Source of the DNA: Acaryochloris marina S15
Lineage (GTDB): Bacteria > Cyanobacteriota > Cyanobacteriia > Thermosynechococcales > Thermosynechococcaceae
Direction: 5' to 3'
Assembly (NCBI RefSeq): GCF_018336915.1
Contig: NZ_CP064923.1
Span: 1,500,001 to 1,532,000 of the forward strand
DNA: 32,000 nt
Part shown: positions 1-29,954 of the stretch, piece by piece
How the letters are laid out: each line of letters starts with the position of its first letter
How positions within the stretch are numbered: the first letter of the stretch is position 1
Translations under genes and position numbers: made by a program
Notes under the pieces: generated by a model
Told to the model about the DNA's origin: nothing
The model's database searches: none
Seen by the model: the letters and a program-made list of their open reading frames with translations, nothing else

Positions 1-1244
1 TGATGGGGTTTCCCTTTAGGCTTAGGACGGGCAATATATCGGCTGCGCGCTAGGTCAACTAATTCCTGTTCTTTTTGCTCAATGGTGCGCTGTAAGACCT
101 TGACTTCTGCTTTTAGATAGTCAGCCACTGAGCCATATTGATGATTGAGCAGACGGGTACTCTGTTGGAGGCTATGGAGATAACCCACTAACTGCTGATT
201 TTGATCTTGAACGCCAGTTGCTTCTGGCGCAAAGAACTTGATGGCAATTAAACACTGACGTTTATCGGGAGTGGGGTTATAGCTGACAAAGTCAGTGAAT
301 TGGCTCATGATGCCAAAGCCTCTCCCCCCTTCATCCATCAGATCCACATCTTCCAGAGATTTGAAAATTTTGTCAGGGTTGTCTAGACCTGGACCTCGGT
401 CCCAAATTTGCAGTACTAAAACATTACTGGAAATGTTGAGCTCCAAGTCAATCGGCGTGGTGTGGGGCAGATCCTTATGGGCATATTTCAAGACATTATC
501 CACACCCTCACCCAATACCGTTTGCAGCTCTAACCAAGGTTTCATGGGAATGTGAGGCTGCTGAAGCTGCCCAAACCAGTCCAGGGCCGCCTGGGCGTTT
601 TCCCGTTTGGTTTCTAGGGTTAAGGTATGAGACTTTAATTGCTCCTCTCCGGCAGCAATTTCTGAGACGAGACTCTGGAGATGCTGCAGCTGCGCTTTGA
701 GGTGTAGACGTTGCGAGTTGATCTCATCCGCTGCCGCACGAAGTTGTGGTGTTTGCAAATCCCCAATACATAATTGCTCCGACATTTGCCGCATTTGAGG
801 GGAGTTGCCGTCATCCAGTACATAGACCTTCAGCTTTGTTGCAGGATAGTCCATGCTCAAGGCCGCTTTAGCCGTTTCCCGAACCATCTCAACCGGTTCG
901 TTATAGCAGGTAATAAATACATCTACTCTCGGCCATTTAGCCTCTGGCAAAGCGGGGCGCATTTGTCTGAGGGGTTTGGCATCTCGGATAATGGGTCGCC
1001 ACAGACCAATAAAAAACATGACGCCGCCAATATAGCTATATATTTCAGCGAGTAATAGTGGAATGGCTATCCATAGGGCATTGAAGTTGACCGAATTCAG
1101 GATTCGCCACTGTAAATACCAGCCCCCAAAAATGAGGTTTATGATCACCAGAAACCGAAAGAGTAGGGTTCTATCCTTGAGTCTGATGCGAATATTGCCA
1201 GAAAAGGCAGGGGTATTTTCAATAATGGGGACGGCATTAGTCAT
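1..1244 (-). CDS. Family-2 glycosyltransferase, cellulose-synthase-like processive glycan synthase. First 414 codons only; the gene continues past the left edge. Carries a GHKL/HATPase-like insertion.
   Basis: Missing from the supplied ORF track because it runs off the window. My reverse-complement translation from the ATG at 1244..1242 stays open to position 1. It begins MTNAVPIIENTPAFSGNIRIRLKDRTLLFRFLVIINLIFGGWYLQWRILNSVNFNALWIAIPLLLAEIYSYIGGVMFFIGLWRP, which contains two TM-like segments. WPRVDVFITCYNEP and KVYVLDDG follow, the GT-A motifs seen in BcsA/CesA-type enzymes. The visible part ends ...RYIARPKPKGKPH, where such enzymes continue with H-AKAGN. An AAGGA lies about 12 nt upstream of the ATG. 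Confidence 0.8.
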   Translation of the reverse strand, partial: MTNAVPIIENTPAFSGNIRIRLKDRTLLFRFLVIINLIFGGWYLQWRILNSVNFNALWIAIPLLLAEIYSYIGGVMFFIGLWRPIIRDAKPLRQMRPALPEAKWPRVDVFITCYNEPVEMVRETAKAALSMDYPATKLKVYVLDDGNSPQMRQMSEQLCIGDLQTPQLRAAADEINSQRLHLKAQLQHLQSLVSEIAAGEEQLKSHTLTLETKRENAQAALDWFGQLQQPHIPMKPWLELQTVLGEGVDNVLKYAHKDLPHTTPIDLELNISSNVLVLQIWDRGPGLDNPDKIFKSLEDVDLMDEGGRGFGIMSQFTDFVSYNPTPDKRQCLIAIKFFAPEATGVQDQNQQLVGYLHSLQQSTRLLNHQYGSVADYLKAEVKVLQRTIEQKEQELVDLARSRYIARPKPKGKPH

Positions 1245-1462
1245 GAGACTGTGTATCCTTACTGCTTGACTAAAGAGTGATGATGTTGAGTTCTATGAAC
1301 AATATTTTTGAGAATCACCACAGTAGCGTTGCGGTTAAGTTGAGTATTGACACCTAGCTGCTCATTCTCACAACATCTCGCAAAACATTCATTTTGAGAT
1401 CGCTGTGAAGTCGGCTTGAGGCCATCTATTGCTATAGGGAGAGTATCCATTTATCAGAAAAG

Positions 1463-4400
1463 TTATTTGTTATTGTTTTTGGACAGAGCGCTGTTTGGGG
1501 CTCCCCAATAGGTCCCGGTCGAATCAGTAATAAGCTGCAATTTAGGTTTGGGGGTAGGGGGTAAGCCCGTACCAATTTCTTCGTTGGCAACGGCTTTCCA
1601 CCAGGGGGAGCTACGGGAGATATCGGCGACGAGTAACGGTTGGCGATCGCGCAAACGATACAAGATTGACTGCAGGACAATACTATTGGTGGAGCCACTA
1701 AAACCAGGATTAGACTGGCCCGATTGCTCGTTTACCCCTTCGTAAAAACCCAATACGGGGTTATACAGGTCTAATGCTGACTGATACAGCTCTTGAGCGT
1801 AGTCATTGTCGGGAAAAATTGCGTGATAGGCAAAGGCTGCAGCACTGCTGATGACCCGTTGCTCAGACTCTAGTGCTTTGTTCGCACTTGAAGCCGCCCA
1901 AGCTTTTTTATCTTTATCCATCAGACTGCTATGAATGACGTAAGGGGCCTTAGTCGACAGGGTTGTTCCAGCTGCAGTCAGTACCCCTTCCCGGTTATAC
2001 CGTTCTTGTTGAGCTTGCAACATCGGTAGAACTAATCGCCGCATTTGTGGATCTAGACCTAGCTCTAAGCCATAAACCATAAATGGATTGCTAACGATCT
2101 GTTGATCGGTATCGGGCTTCTTCCGAGGACGATCTCGCTCAATCGGAATTTGGAACCCTTCTAACTCTGCGGTTTTATAATCCCCGCCTACAGCCGCTTC
2201 CGTCACATCAAAGCCCCAAAGCTGAAATCCTCGGGCTGCATATTCTTCGTAGCCCAACCGTGAATCGGGTTTCACTCGGATTAAGCGACGGCCATTGCTG
2301 TCTGCTTCTACAAAAGCACTATGAATGCGGCCATCTCGAACGACCCGCAGGAACGACCAGTCCAACACAATCTCATCAATAATTTCGGTATATCCCTTAT
2401 GACACCCCTTGAGGTTGTGCAGCGCTAACAAGAAACGACCCACGTCTAAACCTGACCAGCCAATTCCTTCTGGGGACGGATTCATCCCATAATCAACCGA
2501 TTCTAGGGTACGGATATCATAGTTACGATGGGGCAATTCGCCACCATGTAACGGCAGCCGTTTTATTGCACCTAAAAATAACCGAACCCGCTGATCAAAT
2601 TCCTCGATGGTAATCACATCCAGCGATTCAGCAGCCTGGAGTGCGGCGATATAATCTCCCATCCCCCAAAGGGTTGCGACTTTCATGTCGCTGCGATCGC
2701 TAACTAATCCCGTACTGGAATCATAATTGGCCTCAAAATATTTCCAGGCTGCTTTGGCATATCGTTTCTCAGCCAAGTGAGGTCGGCGAGTTAAATCTTC
2801 GCAGACAGAAGAATTTTTGGGTTTACCACCTGACAGAATTGGAGCCACAGCCAACTGAACAGGCTGCTTCAGCTGTTCAGGCTGTTCTATCTTGCCAATT
2901 GATTCGGGTGGAGCCGGTGCTGATGCAACCACAGGAGCTGGAGCTGTTGCAGGCGCAGAGGTAGGCAAAGATGTCGTAGTTTGACCCGGTGGAAATTTAG
3001 GACTTGCGCCATCACCTTCAATAAATTGGCAGCAAACAACTAGGTTCGGATCAACAGCGCTAGGTTGAGATACCGTTTGCTGAGTGGGAGATTGAGCAAC
3101 AACAGGGCTAGGAGGCGGCGCTGCACTTGGGCCAGGCGTTGGAGCCGGAGCGGGTGCTGGAGCTGGGGCTGGAGCGGGTGCCGGGGCTGGAGCTGGAGCG
3201 GGTGCCGGGGCTGGAGCTGGAGCGGGTGCCGGGGCTGGAGCTGGAGCGGGTGCCGGGGCTGGAGCTGGAGCAGGTGCCGGGGCTGGAGCTGGAGCAGGTG
3301 CCGGGGCTGGAGCTGGAGCGGGTGCTGGAGCAGGTGCCGGAGCGGGTGCTGGAGCCGGGGCGGGTGCTGGAGCCGCAGCTACATTATCTGGAGCGGGGTA
3401 ACCTTCCGCAACTATCGTGTTTTGGGGATTTCCAGTAGAGGCATTAACACCATTTCCCCCAATCAGCGGTCGATATCCTCTGGCTTTGTAATAGAGGATC
3501 TCCATGATCAGCCCATTCGTGTTACCCGTCAGGGCTCGATTGGGCTCATTAGTTTCCTCATACAATCCGGCAAAAAATCCACCCCCATCTGGACTCATCA
3601 AGCCCTTCGCCACTTCAAATAATTGATCCGCATAAGGTTCGTCGGGAAAGATATACCGCCAACCAAAGGCAGCCTTGGTACTAATACTGCGCTTGTCAGG
3701 ATGAAGTTCATTTTTTTCTGTAATCGTGGCCCAAGCCTCGCCATTGGAAAAAACCGTGTTGTAGAGGAAGTAGGGCGGGCCGTCAATATTGTCTTCCGTC
3801 ACAGCCGTTAACTGCCCCGTTGCCTGATAGCGACGTTTTTGGACTTCTAGGACCCGAGCTGCATAGTCTCGCATCTGGTCACCGAGAAAACCAAATTCAA
3901 TGCCATCCAGAATATAAGATTCACTGACCACATAGTTATTGGCATTGGTTTCCTGGTATGCCCGAGTATCTACCGGGATCTGCACCCCATAGATTTCAAC
4001 CATTTGAAAGGGTTCAAAGGATAGGGCTTTCGGAACGGAGAACCCCCATAATTCATACCCTCGGGCTGCATATTCTTCATAGCCTAGGCGGCCTTCTTGT
4101 ACGGGTAGAGTTTGGCCATCTTCAAGGACTGTAGCCCCATACATATTGCCATCTTCAATGGAACGTTCAATCGCCCAGCGATCAACAATAGCCTGCAACC
4201 ATTCAGCATATTGGGGGTGGCAGGTTCGGAGGACATGGAAAGCCGCCAGCACTCGACCAATATCGAGAGCCGACCAACCAATTCCCCGTTCAATAGGGTT
4301 GTTACCATAGTCCACCATGTCGCCATTGGCAGCGTTATAGACCTTATTCGGCAGGCTATCTTCAAATAGGGTGAGTTCTGCAAGGCTGGATAAAAACTTA

Positions 4401-6133
4401 TTCAATTTTTGATCCAATTCATCTTGCGGGATTAGGTTCATCCACCGGGCCGCATTGAGGGCCATCAGGTAGTTACCCATGTCCCACAAGGTACCAGAAG
4501 GATATCCTCCCGATGAATTGGTAAACCCAGTGGCTTCTTGATAGTTATTGACAAAATATTGCCAAGCAGTGCGGGCGTAGGTTTCTTCTTCTGGTGTTAA
4601 AGGGTTGGTAATACCGCCGCAGGAATTATCGGTGGGGGGTGGGGGTGGTGCAGAAATTGGAGCAGGGGCAGGGGCAGGGGCCGCCGCAGGTGTAGGAGAT
4701 GGGGCGGGGGCAGGTGCTGGAGCGGGCGTTGGCGCTGGGGCGGGTGCTGGGGCGGCGGGGACTTGAGCCGTTTCAGGCGCAGGAAAACCTTCCATAACAA
4801 CGGTTGATTCAGGGGCTCCAGTTGAAGCACTAACGCCATCCCCTCCAATTAGGGGGCGATTCCCTCTCGCCTTGTAATAGAGGATTTCCATAATCAACCC
4901 GTTGGTATTTCCGGTCAGAGACTGATTGGGTTGTTGAGTCTCCTCATATTGGCCCGCGAAAAATCCCCCTCCATCCGGGCTCATTAAGCTCTTGGCTACT
5001 TCAAAGAGTTGTTGAGCATAGGGATCATCTGGAAAAATATAGCGCCAACCAAAGGCGGCTTTCGTACTAATACTGCGTTTATCGGGATGGAGTTCATTTT
5101 TTTCCGTGATCGTGGCCCAGGCCACTCCATTAGAAAAGACTGTGTTGTATAGGAAGTAGGGCGGACCATCAATGTTATCTTCAGTCACGGCTGTCAATTG
5201 ACCTGTGGCCTGATAACGCCGCTTCTGAACTTCAAAGACCCGAGCTGCATAGTCCCGCATTTGGTCGCCCAAGAAACCAAATTCAATGCCGTCTAAGATA
5301 TAGGACTCACTAACGACATAGTTATTAGCATTGGTGTCTTGATAATTACGAGTATCTACAGGAATTTGTACCCCATAGATTTCAACCATCTTGTAGGGTT
5401 CAAAGGACAATGCCTTGGGAACCTGAAAATTCCAAAGTTGGTATCCCCTTGATGCATATTCCTCATACCCGAGGCGGCCTTCCTGCACTGGCAAGGTTTG
5501 GCCATCTTCAAGGACTGTAGCCCCATACATATAGCCATCTTGAACGGAACGATCCACCGCCCAACGATCAATAATGGTTTTCAACCAATCTGCATACTGA
5601 GGGTGACAGGTCCGCAGGACATGAAACGCAGCCAAAACACGCCCAATATCTAGTGCTGACCAGCCAATCCCTCGTTCGATGGGGTTGTTGCCATAATCCA
5701 CCATGGCTCCATCGGCAGCGTTATACACCTTATTCGGCAAGCTATCCTCAAACAGCGTTAACCCTGCTAGTGAAGATAGGAATTTATTGAGTTTCTGATC
5801 GAATTCTTCTTGGGGGATGATGTTCATCCATCGAGCGGCATTGAGGGCCATGAGGTAGTTGCCCATATCCCACAAGGTACCGGAGGGATATCCCCCCGAT
5901 GAATTCGTAAATCCCGTTGATTCCTGATAGTTGTTGACAAAATATTGCCAAGCGGTGCGGGCGTAAGTTTCCTCCTCTGGTGTTAAAGGATTCGTAATCG
6001 CCCCACACTCATTGGCTTCTTGGGCATGGGCAACCTTCTCTGTGGTAAACGGTAGCCACAAAGGAGGAGAAAAGATGCCAATTGCCAGACAGGCAACCAG
6101 TCTAACTATCGGTAGAGAACGACGTCGATTCAT
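1463..6133 (-). CDS. Secreted 1556-aa protein with three tandem DUF3131-like modules joined by Pro/Ala-rich linkers; putative glycan-active protein
   Basis: From the ORF track. It has a Sec-type signal (MNRRRSLPIVRLVACLAIGIFSPP...KVAHA/QE). Three modules of about 430 aa share the motifs LWDMG, IGWSALDIGR, EGRLGYEEYA, TAVTEDNID, STKAAFGW and TGNTNG. From memory I associate these with the DUF3131 family; this was not searched. Modules 1 and 2 are near-identical at protein level and module 3 is divergent. Confidence 0.85.
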   Translation of the reverse strand: MNRRRSLPIVRLVACLAIGIFSPPLWLPFTTEKVAHAQEANECGAITNPLTPEEETYARTAWQYFVNNYQESTGFTNSSGGYPSGTLWDMGNYLMALNAARWMNIIPQEEFDQKLNKFLSSLAGLTLFEDSLPNKVYNAADGAMVDYGNNPIERGIGWSALDIGRVLAAFHVLRTCHPQYADWLKTIIDRWAVDRSVQDGYMYGATVLEDGQTLPVQEGRLGYEEYASRGYQLWNFQVPKALSFEPYKMVEIYGVQIPVDTRNYQDTNANNYVVSESYILDGIEFGFLGDQMRDYAARVFEVQKRRYQATGQLTAVTEDNIDGPPYFLYNTVFSNGVAWATITEKNELHPDKRSISTKAAFGWRYIFPDDPYAQQLFEVAKSLMSPDGGGFFAGQYEETQQPNQSLTGNTNGLIMEILYYKARGNRPLIGGDGVSASTGAPESTVVMEGFPAPETAQVPAAPAPAPAPTPAPAPAPAPSPTPAAAPAPAPAPISAPPPPPTDNSCGGITNPLTPEEETYARTAWQYFVNNYQEATGFTNSSGGYPSGTLWDMGNYLMALNAARWMNLIPQDELDQKLNKFLSSLAELTLFEDSLPNKVYNAANGDMVDYGNNPIERGIGWSALDIGRVLAAFHVLRTCHPQYAEWLQAIVDRWAIERSIEDGNMYGATVLEDGQTLPVQEGRLGYEEYAARGYELWGFSVPKALSFEPFQMVEIYGVQIPVDTRAYQETNANNYVVSESYILDGIEFGFLGDQMRDYAARVLEVQKRRYQATGQLTAVTEDNIDGPPYFLYNTVFSNGEAWATITEKNELHPDKRSISTKAAFGWRYIFPDEPYADQLFEVAKGLMSPDGGGFFAGLYEETNEPNRALTGNTNGLIMEILYYKARGYRPLIGGNGVNASTGNPQNTIVAEGYPAPDNVAAAPAPAPAPAPAPAPAPAPAPAPAPAPAPAPAPAPAPAPAPAPAPAPAPAPAPAPAPAPAPAPAPAPAPAPAPAPAPAPTPGPSAAPPPSPVVAQSPTQQTVSQPSAVDPNLVVCCQFIEGDGASPKFPPGQTTTSLPTSAPATAPAPVVASAPAPPESIGKIEQPEQLKQPVQLAVAPILSGGKPKNSSVCEDLTRRPHLAEKRYAKAAWKYFEANYDSSTGLVSDRSDMKVATLWGMGDYIAALQAAESLDVITIEEFDQRVRLFLGAIKRLPLHGGELPHRNYDIRTLESVDYGMNPSPEGIGWSGLDVGRFLLALHNLKGCHKGYTEIIDEIVLDWSFLRVVRDGRIHSAFVEADSNGRRLIRVKPDSRLGYEEYAARGFQLWGFDVTEAAVGGDYKTAELEGFQIPIERDRPRKKPDTDQQIVSNPFMVYGLELGLDPQMRRLVLPMLQAQQERYNREGVLTAAGTTLSTKAPYVIHSSLMDKDKKAWAASSANKALESEQRVISSAAAFAYHAIFPDNDYAQELYQSALDLYNPVLGFYEGVNEQSGQSNPGFSGSTNSIVLQSILYRLRDRQPLLVADISRSSPWWKAVANEEIGTGLPPTPKPKLQLITDSTGTYWGAPNSALSKNNNK
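3136..3376. repeat. Tandem repeat encoding the long (Ala-Pro)n linker; six head-to-tail 24-bp units flanked by degenerate copies
   Basis: The unit GGGTGCCGGGGCTGGAGCTGGAGC, or its AGGTG... variant, sits at 3176-3199, 3200-3223, 3224-3247, 3248-3271, 3272-3295 and 3296-3319. Degenerate GGTGCTGGAGC-type copies lie on both sides. On the minus strand this encodes the APAPAP... run in the 1556-aa protein. Confidence 0.9.
4631..4762. repeat. Low-complexity G-rich tract (C-rich on the coding strand) encoding the first Pro/Ala linker between modules 1 and 2
   Basis: The sequence ggtggggggtgggggtggtg...ggggcaggggcagggg...gggtgctggggcggcgggg encodes PAAPAPAPAPTPAPAPAPAPSPTPAAAPAPAPAPISAPPPPP on the minus strand. 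Confidence 0.8.
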
Positions 6134-6215
6134 CAGGTAGGATGGCCCCAGTCAAACAATGCAAAAGAAACACAAACCTTGTTATTGGTGAGCAGGTGAA
6201 TAGGGCTAAATCCTA

Positions 6216-7724
6216 TTAGGTACCTAGCTCAGAAACACCAGCCCAAACAGCTAGAGGTTTGCCAACCTTCTTAAATAATAAGCACTCTAAGATAATGCCA
6301 TTGTTATTAGCTGTCAATACGGCATTAGGCTCATCTAAGGTTTCATAAAAACCACTGTACCAACCTTTTTTCGAACCAACTTTTTCTTGCACAAAAGCAA
6401 ATAACTTTTTGGTGTAATCCGTGTTGTAAAGAACATGCCAACCGATCGCAGCTTTGGTACTCACAAAGCGGAGATGATTATAATTTTCTCCGGTATCACT
6501 AATCGTTGCCCAGGGTTTACCATTCACATATAAGGTGTTGTAAACAAAATAGGGTTCTCGATCCAAATTATCTTCAGTGATAGCCGTTAATTGCTTAGTG
6601 GCTTTGTAGCGGGCTTCTTGGGCGGCGAGCATCCGGTCTGCATAAGCTTTAGGGAGCGCTTTGAATCCTGTTTCGATGCCATCGAGGAAAAAAGGCTCAC
6701 TTAAAACATAGTTATTCGCTTCCGAATTTTCGCGATCGCGCACATCAAAAGGAATGCTGTGGCCATAGAGTTCAACGAAGGCCGATTTGTTGTTGTAATC
6801 TAACGCTTTATCAACATTAAGCCCCCAGAGTTTCAAACCATAGGCCGCATAATCTTCGTACCCTAAGCGTCCTTCTTGGTTATATTGCTCTTGACCATCT
6901 TTGATACTGGTGCCATACATTTGGCCACCTTTTGTCAACCGTTTGACATCCCAGGCTTTCCACACTGCTGTGGTTTGGGGTTCAAACTCGGGATATTTGG
7001 CGGCAATAATTTTTAGCCATAGGGCAATTCGACCCAGGTCAATCGCTGACCAGCCAATCTCTTCCCGCTTATCTAGGGAACCATAATTCACCGGCATTAG
7101 ATTTTGGGAATTGTAGACCTTATTGGGAAGCTCCCCTTTATACAATTCCAACTTGGCAAGGGTGGTCAGCATCTTGCTCATGGTCGCTTTGAATTCTTTT
7201 TCCGAAACCAAGTCCAATTCTCTAGCACTGACCAGAGCCGCCATTGCCGCACTTTGATCCCAAAGGGTCACCGATTGAAATTGATCAACCGAATTAGCCA
7301 AGCCTGTTTCTGGATTAATATTGGTCTCAAAATAGCTCCAGGCTTGCTTGGCGACCTTTAGCTCAGCAGGGGAGAGTTTACCGACATGAGCTGGGACATA
7401 GGGCGTTGTCGTCTTTGCAATTTCTGATTGACTCACCCGGTCGCCTGGAAATTTAATAGAGCGGGAATCAGGCTTTTCATGCTTAGCTTTAGGTTTCGTT
7501 TTGTCTGGGGCAGATGTAGTTGAGCTGGGGGCGGTAGCCGTGGTGGTAGGGGCAGAATCTTTAGTTGATTTTTTTTGGGAAAGATTACCCGATAGCATTT
7601 CTAAACCTGCGATCGCAGCGACAGCTGTCACTACACCACCTAAATAGGTGAGAAAAGCAAGTTTTTTAGGTGGCATTTCGAAATTAGAATTCATGACTGC
7701 TCCCACTTGGAATAATGACTGCAA
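6216..7724 (-). CDS. Membrane-anchored protein with a single DUF3131-like module; paralog of the modules in the 1556-aa protein
   Basis: From the ORF track, 502 aa. It has an N-terminal hydrophobic anchor (KKLAFLTYLGGVVTAVAAIAGLEML) and an S/T/P/K-rich spacer. One module follows with LWDQS, IGWSAIDLGR, EGRLGYEDYA, TAITEDNLD, STKAAIGW and TANNNG. The real start may be the Met at codon 11. Confidence 0.85.
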   Translation of the reverse strand: MQSLFQVGAVMNSNFEMPPKKLAFLTYLGGVVTAVAAIAGLEMLSGNLSQKKSTKDSAPTTTATAPSSTTSAPDKTKPKAKHEKPDSRSIKFPGDRVSQSEIAKTTTPYVPAHVGKLSPAELKVAKQAWSYFETNINPETGLANSVDQFQSVTLWDQSAAMAALVSARELDLVSEKEFKATMSKMLTTLAKLELYKGELPNKVYNSQNLMPVNYGSLDKREEIGWSAIDLGRIALWLKIIAAKYPEFEPQTTAVWKAWDVKRLTKGGQMYGTSIKDGQEQYNQEGRLGYEDYAAYGLKLWGLNVDKALDYNNKSAFVELYGHSIPFDVRDRENSEANNYVLSEPFFLDGIETGFKALPKAYADRMLAAQEARYKATKQLTAITEDNLDREPYFVYNTLYVNGKPWATISDTGENYNHLRFVSTKAAIGWHVLYNTDYTKKLFAFVQEKVGSKKGWYSGFYETLDEPNAVLTANNNGIILECLLFKKVGKPLAVWAGVSELGT

Positions 7725-7907
7725 TAGTCAGTAATTAGACAATATTGATTGATAGCTAGGACAATCGCCTAGAGAAAGTATTCCTGATTTTTGAAAACTA
7801 GAAAAAAATATCAATAACAATCAATTAAGATGGACTTTCTTTCGTTAAAAGAGACTTGCCTGCTCTAGAATTCCCAACTTAACAATCGGTTTAACACTCT
7901 TAAAAAA

Positions 7908-10046
7908 CTAAAAATCTATTCTCAATTGCCCAGAAAAGATATGGCTATTACTGGCTCCAGACCCACTCGAAATAATGTTGGTGAGAACATAACCAAAATC
8001 AAGCTCTACATTCTCAGCCAAAGACGCTGTACATTTTGCTTGTAGCCCTCGACCGGTACTCTTACCCCCATTTACTACTTGGTTACCAATGGAGGCAGCA
8101 AATTGACAGGTTAAAGGATCAAAAATTTTCCCTTTCCAACCCACTTCAGCGTTATAGAGTAAAAAGCCTAGGGGGGAAAAATAACCACTCTCGGCTTCTA
8201 AGTCTTCCGCAAAATTCCAGGTAAATACGTTAGCTGCGACAGAAAATGGCCCTATTTTTCGCTCTAAGCGGCTGAAAGACTGGATTTCTTGGTTACCATC
8301 ACTGAAGAATCCAGCTTGTAACAGGCCAAAGAATGTAGTCTTACTGTCAATTTGCCAAAATACACTGGGACGAATCCGCCAATAGCTAATGTCATTTTCT
8401 AAAGTCGTGGTGTTGAATTTATAGGGGCCATGCTCGACTTCTCCAGAGACTAGGACTTGGCCAAAGAGGGACGTCTTCGCTCCCACCTTAAACGTAGGTT
8501 GAGGAGCTAAACGGTTAAATACTTCGGCACCCGCTGCCACATTGATGGAAACCTCTCCGACCTCAGTCTCCCACCCTAAAATTAGTGGAATATTTTTGAC
8601 GGGTTCCTGACCATCCTGGCTATAGGTATTCATCCCTGTTGTAAACGTGACAACATCTCCATTCCGAACTCGGAACGTAACCACTTCTTCAATTTTTAAG
8701 TTTTCTTTGCCAAATTCATCGAAATCAAGCTTGAAGTCAGTCGTTGAATTCTCTAAGACAATAAAAGATACCTGTGGATCATCAGCGGCTCCAATCGGGG
8801 TTAAGTCAGCTGGCAACCGATTTTGAGGCGTAATTTTAGGCTGTTGAATCGGTATATCTGCAGGCACTGTAGGAGATTGAGCGGTCGTTTGTGCAGGAAC
8901 TTTAGGTGTATCTTGCACAAGAACAGGCTGAGATGTAGGTGAAATATTTTGCTGCGGACGGGGGGAGGGAACCGATCGGAAACGGGGGATAGAGGTAGGG
9001 GATGGGTTGTTCCTAGAGGCCTCTGGCACAGTAGGTTGGGACCTTAGTGGTGCTAGCGGTGGCGGCCCTGATGGACGGACAGCAGGGCTAGAATTAGGCG
9101 TCTGCTCAGCGGGCGTTGCAGCGCCTCCTTCAACAGAATTATTGAGTGGAGTAGAGGAAGGTAGATTCCGAGGAACGGGACCGGAAGGACGGGCCGTTGG
9201 ACTAGATGTAGGAACTCTATCAACAGGCGTTGCAGCACCTCCCTCGACAGAATCTTGGGGGGAGGAGGAGGAGGGGAGCGCTGGGATATTCGTTGGACCT
9301 GAAGGGCGAGTCGCTGGACTATAGACGGGAATTCTATCTGTAGGTGTTGCAGCCCCTCCCTGAAAATCATCTGGTGAGGAGCGAGGAGGAATATCTTGTG
9401 GCCGAGGCGCTGGACCTGAAGGGCGAGCAGCTGGACTATAGGTAGGAGGTTTGTCAGTAGGCGTCACAGTCCCTCCCTGAGAATCATCTGATGAGGGGAG
9501 GGGTGAGGCAATTTGCCGAGGAGTAGGACCTGAGGGGCGAGCAGCCGGACGATAGGTAGGGGTTGTAGCCCCTCCCTGAAAATCATCTGGTGATGAAGGG
9601 AGATTAGGGACTTCTGTTTGCCGAGGACCAGGGCCTGAGGGCCGGGCAGTCGGACTGATGATGAGTAGAGGGGAGTTGGGAGGGACTGGAGCCGGAGAAT
9701 ATGGCTGAGAATCTTCAAAGGGTGGAACTCCCCCCGTCCCTGTGGGGATATTCACATCAGTAGGAAACGTAGCTCCGCCTTTGGGGCCTGCTTGAGACTG
9801 GCTGGTAGGAGTAATGGCCGGTAATGGCGGAAAAGGCTGGGTAGAATGCTGGGGACTCGTTGGCTTTTGTGGAGAACGACCAGATTGAACAATAGGCTGA
9901 TGCAAACTGGGATTCAACCCATAGGGGCCTGCAAACAATAACGGCTGCTGAATCACAGGAGGGTCAGTGATCGATAACTCCTGAACCTCTGGAATATTGA
10001 GGTCAGTTTGACAGCCTAAACATAGCGTTGCCAACACGGAGAGCAT
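7908..10046 (-). CDS. Putative outer-membrane protein: short signal or lipoprotein-like N-terminus, about 250 aa of Pro-rich repeats, and a C-terminal beta-barrel-like domain ending in Phe
   Basis: From the ORF track, 712 aa. The N-terminus is MLSVLATLCLGC/Q, with a Cys after a short hydrophobic stretch; it is not a textbook lipobox. Six RPSGP-containing repeats follow. The last ~290 aa show alternating hydrophobic/polar strand-like segments rich in G, S, N and aromatics, and end ...HIFSGQLRIDF, a terminal aromatic typical of the OMP beta-signal. Confidence 0.75.
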   Translation of the reverse strand: MLSVLATLCLGCQTDLNIPEVQELSITDPPVIQQPLLFAGPYGLNPSLHQPIVQSGRSPQKPTSPQHSTQPFPPLPAITPTSQSQAGPKGGATFPTDVNIPTGTGGVPPFEDSQPYSPAPVPPNSPLLIISPTARPSGPGPRQTEVPNLPSSPDDFQGGATTPTYRPAARPSGPTPRQIASPLPSSDDSQGGTVTPTDKPPTYSPAARPSGPAPRPQDIPPRSSPDDFQGGAATPTDRIPVYSPATRPSGPTNIPALPSSSSPQDSVEGGAATPVDRVPTSSPTARPSGPVPRNLPSSTPLNNSVEGGAATPAEQTPNSSPAVRPSGPPPLAPLRSQPTVPEASRNNPSPTSIPRFRSVPSPRPQQNISPTSQPVLVQDTPKVPAQTTAQSPTVPADIPIQQPKITPQNRLPADLTPIGAADDPQVSFIVLENSTTDFKLDFDEFGKENLKIEEVVTFRVRNGDVVTFTTGMNTYSQDGQEPVKNIPLILGWETEVGEVSINVAAGAEVFNRLAPQPTFKVGAKTSLFGQVLVSGEVEHGPYKFNTTTLENDISYWRIRPSVFWQIDSKTTFFGLLQAGFFSDGNQEIQSFSRLERKIGPFSVAANVFTWNFAEDLEAESGYFSPLGFLLYNAEVGWKGKIFDPLTCQFAASIGNQVVNGGKSTGRGLQAKCTASLAENVELDFGYVLTNIISSGSGASNSHIFSGQLRIDF
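9051..9785. repeat. Degenerate in-frame tandem repeats of about 115-125 bp encoding the Pro-rich units (..SPxARPSGPxPR..SSPDDFQGGAxTPTD..)
   Basis: The protein repeats ARPSGPGPRQ, ARPSGPTPRQ, ARPSGPAPRP, TRPSGPTN, ARPSGPVPRN and VRPSGPPP are each followed by (D/S)(F/S)(Q/V)(G/E)GA(A/T)TP(T/V/A). At DNA level the recurring strings are cctgaagggcgagc and ggcgttgcagc. Confidence 0.7.
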
Positions 10047-10167
10047 GAGAGATGATCCACCACAGAACAGAGCATGGGGGAAATTCAGTCAAAAAACGAC
10101 ATTTTTTGAGAAAATCAATCTGCCCCAGTTTAGAGTGCCCTGTAAATTGTGGACTAACGCATGATTT

Positions 10168-16339: not shown

Positions 16340-16858
16340 ATGAGTCGAGTTAGTACAGTTAAACCGCATCTAACAGTGGATGAGGTGAAAGACAAAATTG
16401 CTACGGCTCCGACTGCCCGCTGTCAGCAAAAATGGATGATTATTTATAACGCCCTGGTAGATCCTCGCCCAGCTATCGAAATAGCCACGCATACTGCTAC
16501 TAGTCTTCGAACGGTCCATCAGGTGATTTCCGCTTACAATCGCCTAGGAGCAGCAGCAATTGCTCCTAGGGCTAAACGGAAGAAGAATCCCGGTGCTTAT
16601 CTGAGTATCGAAGAAGAGATTGAATTTTTAGAATCGTTTATTGAACGTGCTCAACAAGGTCATTTAACAACGGTTCAAGAGATCCAAACGGCCTTTGAGA
16701 CTAAAGTGGAGACGTCAGTGGCACCCAGTACTATCTATCGTTTGCTAGACCGACACGGATGGCGCAAACTCATGCCTCGTCCGTCCCATCCCAATGGAAA
16801 CAAAGCGGCACGAGAGGCTTTTAAAAAAACTTTCGGGGGCTGGTCCAAACCGCTGTAG
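16340..16858 (+). CDS. IS630-family transposase OrfA (HTH / winged-helix DNA-binding part)
   Basis: 172 aa. It includes ...IEIATHTATSLRTVHQVISAYNRLG...STIYRLLDRHGWRKLMPRPSHP..., typical of IS630/Tc1-like N-terminal domains. Confidence 0.85.
   Translation: MSRVSTVKPHLTVDEVKDKIATAPTARCQQKWMIIYNALVDPRPAIEIATHTATSLRTVHQVISAYNRLGAAAIAPRAKRKKNPGAYLSIEEEIEFLESFIERAQQGHLTTVQEIQTAFETKVETSVAPSTIYRLLDRHGWRKLMPRPSHPNGNKAAREAFKKTFGGWSKPL
16823..16829 (+). promoter_or_regulatory. A7 slippery heptamer; candidate programmed -1 frameshift or transcriptional slippage site
   Basis: OrfA reads TTT AAA AAA ACT. A one-base slip backwards gives ...FKKNFRGL... in the OrfB frame. That frame has a stop (TAA at 16822-16824) immediately upstream, so fusion must occur here. 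Confidence 0.65.
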
Positions 16859-17403
16859 CAGATCGCTCAGCTGAAGACCAACGTCCCATTGTGATCATGG
16901 CAGCAGACGAAGGGCGCTTTGGTCGTCTAGGGCAAGTAAGAAGAGCTTGGTGTGCTCCTGGAATTCGACCCGAAAGTGGGCAGCAGCTTGTCCGTGAATA
17001 TCTCTATGGCTATGTTGCTGTTGCTCCTGCGTTAGGAAAGATGAGTGCTTTAGTCTTACCCTTTTCCAATACTCAGATGATGAACTTATTCCTAGCACAA
17101 GTGGCGGATGAATTTTCAGACTATTTTGTGGTGATGCAGGTCGATGGAGCGTCTTACCACACCGGAAAGAAGCTCGTCATTCCAGACAATATACGCTTGA
17201 TTGTTCAGCCTCCTCGAAGTCCACAACTCAATGCTGTAGAGCATATCTGGGAGGAGGTGAAAGAAAAGCACTTCTACAATCAGGTTTTTGATTCTTTAGA
17301 TGAGGTATCCGATACCTTGTGCAAGGGACTCAAAGAACTCATGGATTTACCCGATAGGCTGACTTCTATGACCAATTTTCCTCATATGAGAATTACGATT
17401 TAA
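16825..17403 (+). CDS. IS630-family transposase OrfB (DDE catalytic part), reached by a -1 frameshift from OrfA
   Basis: The -1 frame is open from 16825 (KNFRGLVQTAVADRSAEDQRPIVIMAADEGRFG...). The ORF track lists it from 16891. The candidate DDE triad lies in AADEGRFG, VMQVDGASYH and NAVEHIWEEVK. Confidence 0.8.
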   Translation, partial: KNFRGLVQTAVADRSAEDQRPIVIMAADEGRFGRLGQVRRAWCAPGIRPESGQQLVREYLYGYVAVAPALGKMSALVLPFSNTQMMNLFLAQVADEFSDYFVVMQVDGASYHTGKKLVIPDNIRLIVQPPRSPQLNAVEHIWEEVKEKHFYNQVFDSLDEVSDTLCKGLKELMDLPDRLTSMTNFPHMRITI

Positions 17404-18911: not shown

Positions 18912-19466
18912 TTATCTTTGATACATTAGGTCGGTTCTTGCTACATATTTCACACCTCTAGACACCTCAGCCCCTTCATGAAGAATGAGATGCTGAAACA
19001 AAAGGCCAAAACCCTTTCGAGGCGTAATTGAGTGTATTAACTCGGTTAGGAAATTTGTTTGTCCACCCTCAAAATCATCGTTCAAATAGACCAGAAATGA
19101 ATAATAACTCTTTTCATTTCCATTCCGTTCAAGTGAACCATCATAATGAGGGCTAAATTTCATGCCAACTTTATATCGATAGCATCTAAAGCGGTCATGA
19201 GCGCTCGATAAGACTCTTCCCTGCATTGTTGATGGGACGTACTCTTGTGCTTTTAAAAATAATTTCTCTGCAAGGGAGGAATCGTTAAAAATCACTCGCT
19301 CATTATTGCGTACATTGGTATTAACCTCGGCCTCTCCATCATTACGAACCGTTGCCAGACTAGGGTTAAGCTGATTGATTTTTCCAATTAATTCATCGCA
19401 TTCTTTGACTGTCAAAATATTGGGAATCTCAATAATTAATGGAGCTGCTTTATTAATAATGGGCAT
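18912..19466 (-). CDS. 2OG-Fe(II) oxygenase, prolyl-4-hydroxylase-like small form
   Basis: 184 aa. The HxD motif is in KFSPHYDGS and the distal His is in LILHEGAEV. A basic 2OG-binding residue lies in GVKYVARTD, and YLNDDFEGGQTNF is typical of the P4H-like subfamily. Confidence 0.85.
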   Translation of the reverse strand: MPIINKAAPLIIEIPNILTVKECDELIGKINQLNPSLATVRNDGEAEVNTNVRNNERVIFNDSSLAEKLFLKAQEYVPSTMQGRVLSSAHDRFRCYRYKVGMKFSPHYDGSLERNGNEKSYYSFLVYLNDDFEGGQTNFLTELIHSITPRKGFGLLFQHLILHEGAEVSRGVKYVARTDLMYQR

Positions 19467-23788: not shown

Positions 23789-24838
23789 TTAGATATGGCT
23801 CAAGTGCATATCATCCGGTTTGGGAGCATCACTCTGAAGGGCATCGTTCCCCACCCACATGCGAACCAGATGACGTTTCTTTTCGGGCTCTTCCCAATCT
23901 ATATACTCCGTCCGATCATGAGCGATCAGATGATTATTGAGGAAAATCATGTCGCCCGGTTGGAGCTGAAGCTCATAAGTTAGATCTTCTTGGTTGAGGG
24001 TCGCTTCAAATTGATCTAAAACGAACCGATCTTCATCTGATAGAGGCAATCCCGCTTTGTCATGTCCTGCATCTATCCAATAGCGCATATACCGACAGGT
24101 TAACCCTGGATACCAGTGCCCCCATTCAAACACAGGAAATGAGTTCCGTAATCGATCCAGGTGGGATCGGGTGCCGACCTCACCGACAATGATTTTGTCG
24201 CGAATAAAATTCTGGCAAAGCCGTCGTAATACCTCCGGTTGAGATTGGAGCAGTCGCTGATAGGCCGTGAAGGTATTCGCTAAACGATTGACACCTCCTT
24301 CCCGAGCTGTCTTCAGGCAAAGCAAAGACACAACCCCCGGCATTAGGTCCGCATCCGTGCTGTCCGTATGGTACCCAGGAGATGTACAGGTACTAGAAAA
24401 GAGGACATTCGCTTTACGGTGATCCTGGCCGCGATCGCAGACGTCATACAACAGGCCACGTTTATCTAAAACAGACCCTAAGGCATAGCCCAGTTGCAGC
24501 AAAAGAAGTCGGCTAGCGGATTCGCCATATTCAGCAACATTAAACCCAGACAGTAAGACAACGCCCGTGGTTTGGGTGAGGTGATAGCGCATCACATTCG
24601 CCAGCAGGTCAAGATTCTGGATTTTCATCCCCCTTGCTTCAGGAGACTGCCAGGTATATCCCCTCGCCTCCAACCAGTGATTCAACACTAAAACCGAGGA
24701 CAATATGGACTCTGGGAGCGTAATTTTCCAGTGAGGATTGGTTTCTAGGCCTGTGCTAGTCCAGCTAGGCTGTGACTTAGCCTTGATCATCACCGAAGAT
24801 AAGTCTTCGATATGACCCGTAGAAGTGAGAAGTGGCAT
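23789..24838 (-). CDS. TauD/TfdA-family Fe(II)/2-oxoglutarate dioxygenase
   Basis: 349 aa. The HxD facial triad is in SPGYHTDSTD and the distal His is in NNHLIAHDRTEY. An Arg lies in KRHLVRMW. The size and layout are typical of clavaminate-synthase-like amino-acid hydroxylases. Confidence 0.85.
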   Translation of the reverse strand: MPLLTSTGHIEDLSSVMIKAKSQPSWTSTGLETNPHWKITLPESILSSVLVLNHWLEARGYTWQSPEARGMKIQNLDLLANVMRYHLTQTTGVVLLSGFNVAEYGESASRLLLLQLGYALGSVLDKRGLLYDVCDRGQDHRKANVLFSSTCTSPGYHTDSTDADLMPGVVSLLCLKTAREGGVNRLANTFTAYQRLLQSQPEVLRRLCQNFIRDKIIVGEVGTRSHLDRLRNSFPVFEWGHWYPGLTCRYMRYWIDAGHDKAGLPLSDEDRFVLDQFEATLNQEDLTYELQLQPGDMIFLNNHLIAHDRTEYIDWEEPEKKRHLVRMWVGNDALQSDAPKPDDMHLSHI

Positions 24839-25000
24839 GACAATGGCAATCGGATTCGATTGAGACGTAGGGGGGCGGTTAAAGAGTTGGGGCAGATAGC
24901 AGCGCTGATCATCGGCACACCTGGCATTTGCCAGACATCTTGAAGCCTCATAGGGTGAGGCGCTTCAAAATACAACACCTTGCTCAAAGCAAGAACACCC

Positions 25001-25711
25001 TTAGGCGGCCCAAGCATAAGACACAGCTTCGGAAGCTCGCTGAATACCATTAAAGAATTTCAGTCGAGAATCCATCGCCTTCCTGATCGCACGATCCAAA
25101 CAGATGGAGTCTTCCACCGTCCTTAATCGGGGTTCGATCAGCGCTTCCAAATGAGCCGCATGGTCATCATCTAGATCAATATGTACTTCGAAAAAGATCA
25201 GTGCTTCCGAGGAAAAAGGGGATGCCCCGACAATGCCTTGACGAATTTGGGTATATAGGGAATTCACAATTCCTTCTGATGCGAAGCAAACAGCTCCCAA
25301 CGCGGCTAAATAACCATATTTATGGGATAGAGAAAGATAGGTATCAATCATGGCCTGGGTTTCTGGCTCAGGAGGCGTCAGTTCTAACGTCCCATCATCA
25401 ATCCCTAAAGAACGGGTAAAGCGCCGGAATAATTCTGGATGAGCATGAGCCAAGTTGCCCTGTCCCATTTCATCCAAGAGATTTTCCATAATCACCAACT
25501 GGGCACTCTCATCGGGGCAACAAGACATAATGCTGGCCAGGATGCGATTAAAGGCTTGGGAAAATTTGTACATCTGAACCGCTAAAACACGCACTTCTGC
25601 CAATGTCAGCTCTCCAGCCCGACATTGCTCAAGAACAGGATGTCTCCAGAGGGGATGTCGTTCGGTAAGACTGCGAAAAGAATCCATAGAGTTAACAGTG
25701 ATCGTTCTCAT
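25001..25711 (-). CDS. Heme-oxygenase-like diiron oxidase/oxygenase family protein (iron-containing redox enzyme family)
   Basis: 236 aa and all-helical. Candidate 3-His/3-carboxylate ligands lie in MENLLDEMGQGNLAHAHPELF, CFASEGI and FFEVHIDLDDDHAAH. This spacing resembles CADD/UndA/SznF-type sites as I remember them. Confidence 0.75.
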   Translation of the reverse strand: MRTITVNSMDSFRSLTERHPLWRHPVLEQCRAGELTLAEVRVLAVQMYKFSQAFNRILASIMSCCPDESAQLVIMENLLDEMGQGNLAHAHPELFRRFTRSLGIDDGTLELTPPEPETQAMIDTYLSLSHKYGYLAALGAVCFASEGIVNSLYTQIRQGIVGASPFSSEALIFFEVHIDLDDDHAAHLEALIEPRLRTVEDSICLDRAIRKAMDSRLKFFNGIQRASEAVSYAWAA

Positions 25712-26475
25712 TTGTGCACCTCAATCGCCATATGTAAGGGGTAATCAACTAACGGTCCGAAAAAGTCTGGGTCAAGTTCAACGTGCTCAGGTAAAACCCG
25801 TAATTCACGTACAGTTGGCATGCTAGAAAAACCAGCCATTTGCAAGGCTTCAAAGAAATCTTGCAGGGTTTTATGAATCAGCTGGACCTCTAGCCAGGAA
25901 CCATCGCGCTTCCAAATGCGCCCTGGACATTGCTGGTCACGTCCACTGAAATAGTTATTGCCATCCACTTCGAAATAAAAGGGGAACTCAGCTTGACGCA
26001 TATAAGGAAAGGAGGGGTGAGGGATGCTAAACACAAACCGCCCTCCGGGTTCCAGCACTTGAAAGATTTCTGCCATGCAAGCCTGGGTTTGGGCAACGGT
26101 TAGGTAGTTAAACAAGAAAACAGCAACTACTAAGTCAAACCGGTCTTGGGTGTAATGACGGACGTCCGTAGCACATCCCGCCTGATAGGTAATCCCCAGA
26201 GGCTCTTGTTGTTCTTGAGCCTGGGCGGCTTCAATCATCCGCGGGGAGAGATCGACGCCTAAAACGGAGGCTGCCCCCAGCTGTCGGAGTTGGCGACTAC
26301 AGTACCCTTCGCCACATCCGAGATCCAGAATCTTTTGTCCTGAAACAGGGGTACACATCTCCAAAATAGCGGGACGGGCTGTGAAATCAGAGAGAGAACT
26401 GGGGCCACCTCGAACCCATCGAGCCGCTGTATCGTTGTACAGGGATTGGGTTACTTGTTTATTGGCAGTAATCAT
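25708..26475 (-). CDS. Class I SAM-dependent methyltransferase
   Basis: 255 aa. Motif I is ILDLGCGEGYCSRQL, post-I is VLGVDLSPRMIE, and further motifs are FDLVVAVFLFNYL and LEPGGRFVFSIPHP. It has a 4-nt ATGA overlap with the downstream diiron-enzyme gene. Confidence 0.9.
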   Translation of the reverse strand: MITANKQVTQSLYNDTAARWVRGGPSSLSDFTARPAILEMCTPVSGQKILDLGCGEGYCSRQLRQLGAASVLGVDLSPRMIEAAQAQEQQEPLGITYQAGCATDVRHYTQDRFDLVVAVFLFNYLTVAQTQACMAEIFQVLEPGGRFVFSIPHPSFPYMRQAEFPFYFEVDGNNYFSGRDQQCPGRIWKRDGSWLEVQLIHKTLQDFFEALQMAGFSSMPTVRELRVLPEHVELDPDFFGPLVDYPLHMAIEVHK

Positions 26476-29514: not shown

Positions 29515-29555
29515 TGCTGGCAAGGGATAGAGTAGCCGTTTAGCAATGGATAAAG

Positions 29556-29954
29556 GTGATGGTTAAGCCAGTGGTTCTATGTGTAGATGATGAGAAAGTT
29601 ATTTTAGACAGTCTCAAAATACAGATTAAGAAAGAACTGAGCGACCTCTGCAATGTTGAAGCGGCCATCGATGCCAACGAAGCCTTAGAAATTGTGGAAG
29701 AGCTGCAGGAAGAGGGCGTAGATGTAGTGTTGGTGCTGTGTGATTGGCTGATGCCAGGGATGAAGGGCGACGAGTTTTTCGTCAAACTCCATCAAGATCA
29801 TCCCAGTATTATCAAGATTATGCTCTCTGGGCAAGCCGATCAGGCAGCCATTGAACGGGCCAAAGAAGAGGCAGACCTCCATCGGTTTATCCATAAGCCT
29901 TGGCGTAAAAGCGAATTAATTGAACTGCTGAAGTCAAACCTGGAAGCGCTATGA
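29556..29954 (+). CDS. Single-domain response regulator (REC only)
   Basis: 132 aa. Motifs: LCVDDE, the acceptor Asp in [14 protein letters not shown], and MLSGQAD. The conserved Lys sits in FIHKPW. Confidence 0.9.

Follow-up and report, generated by a model that had tools for sequence, protein, structure and literature searches.

The cyanobacterial cellulose synthases include a group of 'PCR-type' CesA proteins, to which a 2025 review assigns alr3757, Npun_F1469 and A2118, and whose partners and regulation it describes as open (PMC12430437). Published work on this group (Nobles 2001, Zhao 2015, PMC12430437) covers the synthase alone. In Synechococcus 7002, CesA (A2118, 788 amino acids) is required for a cellulase-sensitive periplasmic layer that is labelled by a carbohydrate-binding module (PMC4851311), and the protein contains an insertion of about 90 amino acids relative to the 693-amino-acid protein of PCC 7120 (Zhao et al.). 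In PCC 7120, a single transcription unit is listed for alr3756, annotated as "unknown protein", and alr3757, annotated as "cellulose synthase catalytic subunit" (PMC12267927), and alr3758, located downstream of alr3757, encodes an anti-sigma-factor antagonist (PMC4192349). Here, we describe a cluster of four minus-strand genes in a 32,000-nucleotide stretch of the Acaryochloris marina S15 genome (contig NZ_CP064923.1, positions 1,500,001 to 1,532,000; the whole stretch is referred to below as the window). The cluster occupies positions 1-10046 of the window and encodes a predicted outer-membrane barrel protein (A), two proteins composed of DUF3131 modules (B and C) and a family 2 glycosyltransferase (GT2; D).

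Several described systems resemble parts of this cluster. Similarly to the Bcs system (BcsA-BcsB-BcsZ-BcsC), it combines a GT2 of the processive BcsA family with a glycosidase-like (alpha/alpha)6 component in the periplasm and a 16-stranded barrel of the BcsC type but, in contrast to Bcs, it has no BcsB, no GH8 enzyme (with SGL-clan DUF3131 modules found in its place), no tetratricopeptide repeats (TPR) in the porin and no PilZ module responsive to cyclic di-GMP (c-di-GMP). The PgaA and PelB porins, which provide the best structural matches to the barrel of A, carry periplasmic TPR domains that A lacks, and the sequence signal of A is weak and directed to BCSC_C. The SGL clan of beta-1,2-glucanases, which comprises GH144/162/189/192-194 (PMC12102758) and includes the Cgs enzymes, has the (alpha/alpha)6 fold in common with DUF3131, with local profile similarity detectable for GH189 (E=2.9e-6), and both GH189 and DUF3131 are genetically coupled to GT2; the DUF3131 proteins, however, are periplasmic, not cytoplasmic, and are paired with a GT2 of the cellulose synthase type. 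The SpoIIAB-SpoIIAA-SpoIIE and RsbW-RsbV-RsbU modules share with this system the N, G1 and G2 boxes of the kinase and, in relatives, the STAS and PP2C genes next to the cluster, but here no sigma factor is encoded at the cluster loci that were examined and the kinase is covalently enclosed in a glycosyltransferase. Finally, a gene cluster of Klebsiella ("block 3b"), Pantoea and Paracoccus employs, as here, a PilZ-less BcsA-like GT2 and three DUF3131 proteins that fall in or near the cyanobacterial classes, with SpoIIE and RsbW-like genes on both the Pantoea and the Paracoccus plasmids and a STAS gene in Paracoccus; unlike the cyanobacterial cluster, the proteobacterial ones add OpgC, GH16, GH2 or globin genes, and the Paracoccus porin combines TPR with a PgaA_barrel domain.

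Taken together, the data make it probable that these four genes form the Acaryochloris variant of a conserved apparatus for synthase-dependent beta-glucan production, built around a 'PCR-type' cellulose synthase and operating by the mechanism outlined below. Given the cesA mutant reported for Synechococcus 7002, this apparatus most likely produces cellulose or a different glucan that includes beta-1,4 links. This assignment is built on family memberships, folds, gene linkage and a fusion pattern; the enzyme activity, the substrate, the polymer and the direction of regulation are proposals. An initial annotation of the window, made from the sequence alone, had suggested the logic of synthase-dependent exopolysaccharide systems, and this is borne out by the BcsA-family GT2, the porin-class barrel and the fold of DUF3131. 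Of the components by which such systems are recognized, the inner-membrane GT2 and the outer-membrane porin are present, but neither a periplasmic TPR scaffold nor PilZ/c-di-GMP activation is found. The same annotation listed four consecutive minus-strand genes and the absence of BcsB, GH8 and TPR. All four open reading frames and the intergenic gaps of 218, 82 and 183 bp were recovered, searches of Pfam and NCBIfam with A, B and C matched only DUF3131, with no BcsB and no BcsZ (GH8), and no TPR was matched in any of the four proteins. The coordinates of all features are collected in Table 1.

The part of D that lies inside the window matches CelA/BcsA (E=1.5e-24), in agreement with the proposed BcsA/CesA-like GT2 family, but of the polytopic architecture that had also been claimed only two N-terminal transmembrane segments fall inside the window. 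The fragment is 76% identical to a full-length ortholog in locus L005, and the full-length orthologs of L005 (801 amino acids) and L006 (807 amino acids) match the structures of BcsA (E=2e-51), contain the HAKAGN, DADH, TED and QRLRW motifs, match the plant-type Cellulose_synt Pfam model and lack PilZ. The L006 enzyme is in turn 62-68% identical to the GT2 of a Nostocaceae locus (L088), in which the gene order is barrel (433 amino acids), DUF3131 (494), DUF3131 (939), GT2 (695), STAS (112), response regulator-SpoIIE/PP2C, HATPase_c_2 (138) and a giant sensor kinase. A published primer for alr3758 of PCC 7120 has an exact match inside the 3' end of the L088 GT2 gene. Because of this gene order, the exact primer match and the literature on alr3756-alr3758, D is assigned by sequence as the ortholog of Anabaena alr3757, that is, a 'PCR-type' cyanobacterial CesA, so that the synthase itself is already known. 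The features shared with this type are the two N-terminal transmembrane segments, the absence of PilZ and an insertion between U1 (DDG) and U2 (DADH); the Nostocaceae ortholog is located in an alr3754-alr3761-type cluster. An OpgH-like identity of the GT2 was also considered and rejected, there being no OpgH match in NCBIfam. The initial annotation held that the three other proteins had no characterized homologs; remote characterized relatives of the barrel and of DUF3131 exist, as described below, and the synthase is a known enzyme.

The insertion in D accommodates a domain that was absent from the initial annotation, namely, a predicted kinase domain of the HATPase_c_2 family. The DDG and HAKAGN motifs of the GT2 are separated by a helical hairpin, and the kinase domain occupies its loop. 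The insertion of two helical arms at this site is specific to cyanobacteria, and the arms are also present in the Nostoc orthologs. The best solved relative of the inserted domain is the anti-sigma F factor and serine kinase SpoIIAB (E=2e-3), to which it aligns with its N (ExxxN), G1 (DxGxG) and G2 (GxGxG) boxes, and it is 33-48% identical to the standalone 138-amino-acid HATPase_c_2 protein of the Nostoc-type clusters. The synthase thus comes in two forms. The short form (about 660-695 amino acids) is accompanied by a STAS protein, a response regulator-PP2C phosphatase and the standalone kinase, usually with an adjoining large sensor kinase; the fused form (about 790-807 amino acids) contains the inserted kinase, and the standalone copy is found in no fused locus. 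STAS and PP2C genes lie directly downstream of the GT2 in four fused loci (L009, L036, L054 and L080), L050 has a STAS gene, and in L006 a STAS gene is located about 8 kb upstream of the barrel gene. The small gene downstream of the fused GT2 of Pleurocapsa was evaluated as well and is not a STAS.

This alternation of fused and standalone kinase is a Rosetta-stone pattern and therefore suggests that the partner of the kinase is the synthase and not a sigma factor. Furthermore, the examined cluster loci contain no sigma factor gene and the kinase is embedded in a glycosyltransferase, so the synthase is also its likely target. The sequences thereby imply a partner-switching control in place of PilZ/c-di-GMP, the direction of which is conjectural. 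The so-called PCR of these proteins would be better read as a helical hairpin hosting an anti-sigma-type kinase; the label as used for plant enzymes does not imply the SpoIIAB-like kinase hairpin seen here in the cyanobacterial 'PCR-type' CesA. The fused GT2 of Pleurocapsa is 788 amino acids long, the same length as A2118, and from the published size of the latter we infer that A2118 belongs to the kinase-insert type. No paper on partner-switching control of a cellulose synthase was found in the searchable literature.

The two DUF3131 proteins largely conform to the initial description of one membrane-anchored single-module protein and one Sec-dependent protein with three modules. B possesses a single hydrophobic transmembrane anchor (residues 21-42) and one DUF3131 match (E=4.6e-157), and cyanobacterial orthologs share 62-96% identity with it. 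Translation of B probably begins at the ATG at 7694 (492 amino acids) rather than at the called TTG at 7724, because a 96%-identical relative (P0001) has 492 amino acids. The N-terminus of C consists of RRR, a hydrophobic stretch and AHA-Q, resembling a Sec-type signal, and is followed by three DUF3131 matches with 1580 bits in total. The DUF3131 modules form four conserved paralog classes, three of which are represented in the window: B belongs to class 1, and the three modules of C (hereinafter C1, C2 and C3) belong, in that order, to classes 2, 2 and 3. Class 4 is absent from the window and present in Pleurocapsa, Waterburya, Microcoleus and Nostoc. C1 groups with the second modules of the same four genera and with protein 2 of Pantoea and Paracoccus, and its 90% protein identity to C2 points to a recent tandem duplication of the module; the orthologs of C contain two modules in L005 and three in L006. 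C3 deviates at positions that are acidic and conserved in the family (D47G, E234N, E275T and D276T). The arrays that encode the Pro-Ala linkers of C coincide with locally high GC content and GC skew in the composition profile.

Structure modelling provides a link between DUF3131 and characterized enzymes. In the AlphaFold2 model (pLDDT 90.6), the module of B folds as an (alpha/alpha)6 barrel, and the top 20 Foldseek matches are all members of the SGL clan or structural-genomics relatives (E 4e-12 to 9e-7; template modelling (TM) scores 0.61-0.70). These include GH144 structures (CpSGL 5gzk, the "putative glucoamylases" 4qt9/3eu8/4gl3, XcSGL 8xul and 5z06), EeSGL1 (GH192), PgSGL3, fungal GH162 (6imu, 6imw), and Cgs and GH189 cyclization domains (8rf0, 8rf9, 8rfe, 8wy1); the comparison with (alpha/alpha)6 glycoside hydrolases that the initial annotation had recommended thus gave a positive answer for this module. 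At the sequence level, a search of the PDB with B found nothing, and the DUF3131 profiles (28 and 60 sequences) reach only the first helices of the GH189 domain of Cgs (E=2.6e-4 to 2.9e-6). A distant DUF3131 protein from Mesorhizobium, employed as a bridge to the structures, yielded no link, and no full-length sequence match of DUF3131 to any SGL-clan family was obtained. The DUF3131 family comprises 975 clusters at 50% identity (E<=1e-3). An alignment of 60 diverse members shows no variation at E242, with D120, E181 and D218 retained in 57-58; B, C1 and C2 keep all four residues, and C3 is devoid of several other acidic positions. The conserved residues also include Y328, and the spacing D120-E181-F245 resembles E142-E211-F268 of CpSGL, a likeness to be read with the sequence alignment extending over the first helices only. 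The residues that define the clan are E239, F286 and Y367 of XcSGL, together with the catalytic acid/base pair (PMC12102758). DUF3131 is therefore a sequence family of its own, related to the clan of beta-1,2-glucanases and Cgs. The hydrolase or transglycosylase role suggested in the initial annotation is consistent with the fold and the conserved acidic residues and is considered putative. No paper on the function of DUF3131 was found in the searchable literature.

Protein A terminates in LRIDF, and its last approximately 290 residues are modelled by AlphaFold2 as a closed beta-barrel of 16 long strands (pLDDT 90.4). The top four Foldseek matches of the barrel are PgaA (4y25; E=1e-10, TM scores 0.73/0.78), PelB (9h80) and BcsC (9b8a and 6tzk), with the general porins ranking lower. 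By sequence, A has no Pfam match above threshold, its score against BCSC_C (E=0.005) falling under the Pfam cut-off. Pfam BCSC_C is matched by 28 of the 34 aligned homologs of the barrel (best E=9e-7), and the best PDB match of the barrel family profile is BcsC, through GYFSP aligned to GGYYSP. The C-terminal 313 residues retrieve 115 homologs, all annotated as hypothetical and cyanobacterial wherever an organism name is given. The anticipated 712-residue protein with Pro-rich repeats and a Phe-terminated barrel is thus found, and the proposed comparison with BcsC, PgaA and AlgE assigns the barrel to the PgaA/PelB/BcsC class, but the predicted lipoprotein- or signal-like N-terminus is not canonical. 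The N-terminus (MLSVLATLCLGC; region of residues 1-50, 9900-10046) is short, with neither a charged n-region nor a canonical lipobox, and is kept in the Acaryochloris relatives; the Nostoc homologs have clear Sec signals.

The suggestion that the Pro-rich region of A replaces the TPR spacer does not hold, given that the Nostoc homologs (409-495 amino acids) lack the repeats, having instead a short N-terminal region with the conserved motif LIAAPENFNPGL, and that the Paracoccus porin contains TPR alongside its PgaA_barrel. The repeat stretch is also less similar to the close relative L006 (65% DNA identity) than the remainder of the locus (about 81%). Because the repeats are missing from Nostoc, their sequence pattern is that of an expansion in the Acaryochloris lineage and not of a conserved TPR substitute. 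A 705-amino-acid protein encoded upstream in Pleurocapsa was examined as a possible homolog of the barrel and discarded, as it belongs to the beta-helix proteins and does not resemble A.

The conservation of the gene order was assessed by a B-anchored scan of species-representative genomes, which found at least 592 loci, 80 of which were kept. Among the 33 kept loci that are not labelled Nostoc, a multi-module DUF3131 gene adjoins B in 30, a GT2 is present in 23 and a barrel in 24; all four genes are present in 15, and several others end at contig edges. The order of the quartet recurs in Acaryochloris, Waterburya, Coleofasciculus, Microseira, Microcoleus, Crinalium, Calothrix, Anabaena and some Nostoc, so the synteny expected from the initial annotation extends to many cyanobacterial genera. 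In Nostoc NIES-3756 (L001), the pair of barrel and B follows a GT2 of the GT21 type. At locus L093 and at about 36 Nostoc loci among L012-L084, the 10 kb around B are free of genes for a barrel, a multi-module DUF3131 protein or a GT2.

The core of the system, a GT2 with about three DUF3131 paralogs, is not confined to cyanobacteria, contrary to the initial notion of a distinct cyanobacterial apparatus. A search with the B module identified proteins of 42-44% identity on plasmids of Pantoea, Salmonella, Vibrio and Paracoccus, typically with three to four matches per record. On plasmid pDSJ10 of Pantoea stewartii, three DUF3131 genes are accompanied by genes for a "cellulose synthase catalytic subunit", a SpoIIE phosphatase and a small ATP-binding protein. 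The Paracoccus plasmid has a GT2 and three DUF3131 proteins, together with OpgC, SpoIIE, STAS, an ATP-binding protein, two GH16 enzymes and the TPR protein with a PgaA_barrel domain (E=1.2e-8). A similar gene set, OpgC included, is named in passing in a paper on Klebsiella (PMC12974863; "block 3b"). In the conserved C-terminal region, the Pantoea and Paracoccus GT2s share about 31-33% identity with their cyanobacterial counterparts; they have neither the hairpin nor the kinase insertion, and the profile of the A barrel has no match in either cluster. Some of the proteobacterial DUF3131 proteins group with the cyanobacterial classes 1 and 2 or near class 3, and overall three of the four paralog classes group with proteobacterial members. 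The GH16 and OpgC genes hint that the proteobacterial product is possibly a substituted or non-cellulosic glucan. More distant DUF3131 proteins (24-26% identity, 776-943 amino acids) are encoded directly downstream of a glycosyltransferase gene in two further plasmids, and the pairing of glycosyltransferases with DUF3131 therefore reaches beyond the BcsA-like clusters.

In the mechanism that we propose for the glucan apparatus, D, a member of the cellulose synthase family, would polymerize UDP-glucose and thread the chain through the inner membrane. In the periplasm, the nascent chain would encounter the DUF3131 modules of distinct, anciently diverged paralog classes, with B tethered to the inner membrane beside the synthase and the soluble C presenting its modules strung on extended Pro/Ala linkers. 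These modules may cut, trim or transglycosylate the nascent glucan, assuming the role of BcsZ, and B may stand in for BcsB as the periplasmic partner of the synthase. The polymer would then cross the outer membrane, or be anchored at it, through A, which is modelled as a TPR-less 16-stranded porin. The activity of the synthase would be set not by c-di-GMP but by a partner-switching phospho-relay, in which the SpoIIAB/RsbW-like kinase in the cytosolic hairpin of the catalytic domain is titrated by the STAS protein. The phosphorylation state of STAS would be determined by the receiver-PP2C phosphatase under the large sensor kinase, presumably with control running in this direction.

Alternative explanations concern the polymer, the function of the DUF3131 proteins and the linkage itself. 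A non-cellulose polymer is the main rival: the cluster could be a periplasmic or secreted beta-1,2-glucan (OPG-like) system, in which the GT2 makes a beta-1,2- or other non-cellulosic glucan and the DUF3131 proteins are beta-1,2-glucanases or transglycosylases that set the chain length or cyclize the product, as OpgG/OpgD or the GH189 domain of Cgs do. The closest characterized structural relatives of DUF3131 all act on beta-1,2-glucan and not on cellulose (PMC12102758), and the sole link of DUF3131 at the sequence level is to the cyclization domain of Cgs, but the SGL clan also includes the PgSGL4 group, which has no beta-1,2-glucan activity, and the SGL fold therefore does not fix the substrate. 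Distant DUF3131 genes are found close to glycosyltransferase genes (in Mesorhizobium, a GT2), an arrangement reminiscent of Cgs, where GT2 and GH189 are fused, and OpgC is present in the Paracoccus and Klebsiella versions of the cluster. The score of the GT2 against the CelA equivalog model is far below the cut-off (328 versus 699 bits), so that the linkage specificity is not assured; the enzyme is nevertheless BcsA/CesA-like rather than OpgH-like, the cesA mutant of Synechococcus 7002 loses cellulase-sensitive material that binds a cellulose-binding domain, and periplasmic glucans have no need of an outer-membrane porin. On balance, we regard a beta-1,2-glucan system as unlikely. We assign a similarly low likelihood to the second rival, in which the DUF3131 proteins are non-catalytic glucan-binding scaffolds, either BcsB-like or periplasmic guides that align the chains into a laminated wall layer. 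Such a role would fit the absence of BcsB from the cluster, the membrane tether of B, which is like that of BcsB, the multiple modules on long Pro/Ala linkers, which resemble a spacer or organizer, the loss of several conserved acidic residues in C3 and the precedent of PgSGL4 as an inactive clan member; the invariance of E242 and the retention of D120, E181 and D218 in nearly all of the aligned family members and in modules B, C1 and C2 of the window are, however, the pattern expected of catalytic residues.

That the four genes are merely fortuitous neighbors without a shared function is highly improbable, as the same gene order is found in nine genera from Acaryochloris to Nostoc and the linkage of GT2 and DUF3131 recurs in Alpha- and Gammaproteobacteria. 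There are, nonetheless, features of the distribution that would suit fortuitous adjacency: B is solitary in many Nostoc genomes, among them many lichen-associated ones, no barrel adjoins B in several lineages (Pleurocapsa, Thermosynechococcus-labelled and two Acaryochloridaceae loci), and the neighboring GlmU is conserved only within Acaryochloris. These gaps in the quartet also count against the preferred glucan apparatus, as do the substrate of the characterized DUF3131 relatives and the CelA score, and three further observations have the same bearing. No STAS or PP2C gene was found in the 32-kb window; a scan of the intergenic gaps for promoters and terminators gave counts not above those of shuffled sequence and is thus uninformative on co-transcription; and the orthology with A2118 is based on the published size, the identity to the PCC 7120 protein and the classification in the review.

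If the preferred assignment of the cluster to a glucan apparatus is correct, the 'PCR-type' CesA gains candidate partners, namely, a porin of the outer membrane and, in the periplasm, (alpha/alpha)6 proteins of up to four conserved classes. It also gains a candidate mode of regulation by a phospho-relay, the kinase of which has in some lineages become part of the synthase. DUF3131 gains a predicted fold and a likely process, the handling of the product of the neighboring GT2, and an unstudied accessory locus of enterobacteria (Klebsiella, Pantoea and Salmonella plasmids) is tied to the same machinery. As a more tentative extension, doubtful in its entirety but possible, the GT2, the DUF3131 paralogs and the partner-switching genes could represent a widespread undescribed class of synthase-dependent glucan machinery in Cyanobacteria, Alpha- and Gammaproteobacteria. 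In such a class, a SpoIIAB-like kinase and STAS would directly control the gating of an enzyme of the cellulose synthase type, without a sigma factor or c-di-GMP, and DUF3131 would be a new family of glycoside hydrolases or transglycosylases acting on the nascent chain, for example, by cutting it to length, cyclizing it or grafting it into a periplasmic wall layer. Should the DUF3131 modules indeed have enzymatic activity, a new CAZy family would probably have to be created for them. While the synthase and the overall logic have been described before, no description of the accessory set, of the inserted kinase or of the conservation across phyla appears to exist in the searchable literature.

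Table 1. Coordinates of the cluster, its domains and other features (positions in the window unless another locus is named)
Feature	Position	Strand	Description
Gene A	7908..10046	-	712 amino acids; short hydrophobic N-terminus, Pro-rich repeats, C-terminal porin; predicted outer-membrane protein
A, residues ~120-345	9012..9689	-	Six Pro-rich repeats of ~38 amino acids, RPSGP core; lineage-specific
A, residues ~420-712	7911..8789	-	16-stranded beta-barrel of the BcsC/PgaA/PelB polysaccharide-porin class; ends in Phe; without TPR
Gene B	6216..7724	-	502 amino acids as called; membrane-anchored, one DUF3131 module, paralog class 1
Gene C	1463..6133	-	1556 amino acids, secreted; three DUF3131 modules on Pro/Ala-rich linkers
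C module 1	4814..6016	-	Class 2; 42% identical to B module, 90% to module 2 (protein)
C module 2	3428..4630	-	Class 2; apparent recent duplicate of module 1
C module 3	1466..2812	-	Class 3, divergent; ~30% identical to B
C linker array 1	3140-3349		Pro-Ala linker DNA; period 24, 8.8 copies
C linker array 2	4665-4753		Pro-Ala linker DNA; period 36, 2.5 copies
Gene D	3..1244	-	First 414 amino acids of a BcsA-family GT2; remainder beyond the window edge
D, residues ~215-329	258..602	-	GHKL kinase domain of SpoIIAB/RsbW type; HATPase_c_2, E=6.5e-15
Transposase	16340-17403		IS630-type, broken into two open reading frames (HTH_33; DDE_3)
Oxygenase	18912-19466		2OG-Fe(II) (2-oxoglutarate) oxygenase, separate
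Small gene cluster	23789-26475	-	TauD-family dioxygenase, haem-oxygenase-like protein (Haem_oxygenas_2), S-adenosylmethionine methyltransferase
Signalling genes	27441-29954		H-NOX (haem-NO-binding) protein, HNOBA histidine kinase, single-domain response regulator in series
L091, Pantoea pDSJ10	1482-20102		Extra genes: globin, hybrid response regulator, GH2 enzyme
L092, Paracoccus plasmid NZ_CP040760.1	3671-20365		Extra genes: OpgC, two GH16, GAF protein, porin with TPR and PgaA_barrel
L093	10001-11533		B without cluster partners nearby
L094, Mesorhizobium plasmid	1-4106		Distant DUF3131-glycosyltransferase pair
L095, Sulfitobacter plasmid	4208-10101		Distant DUF3131-glycosyltransferase pair

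The next gene upstream of the cluster is glmU. GlmU was considered as a part of the system and rejected, since among the loci examined it adjoins the cluster only in the Acaryochloris relatives. The closest relatives that bear an organism name are Acaryochloris metagenome-assembled genomes, and the similarity of L006 to the window is collinear only to about position 11574. The content of the other 20 kb of the window is unrelated to the cluster and includes an interrupted transposase, a small cluster of dioxygenase, haem-oxygenase-like and methyltransferase genes, a separate oxygenase and, close to the far end, a row of H-NOX, kinase and response regulator genes that looks like a signalling operon for the sensing of NO or O2.

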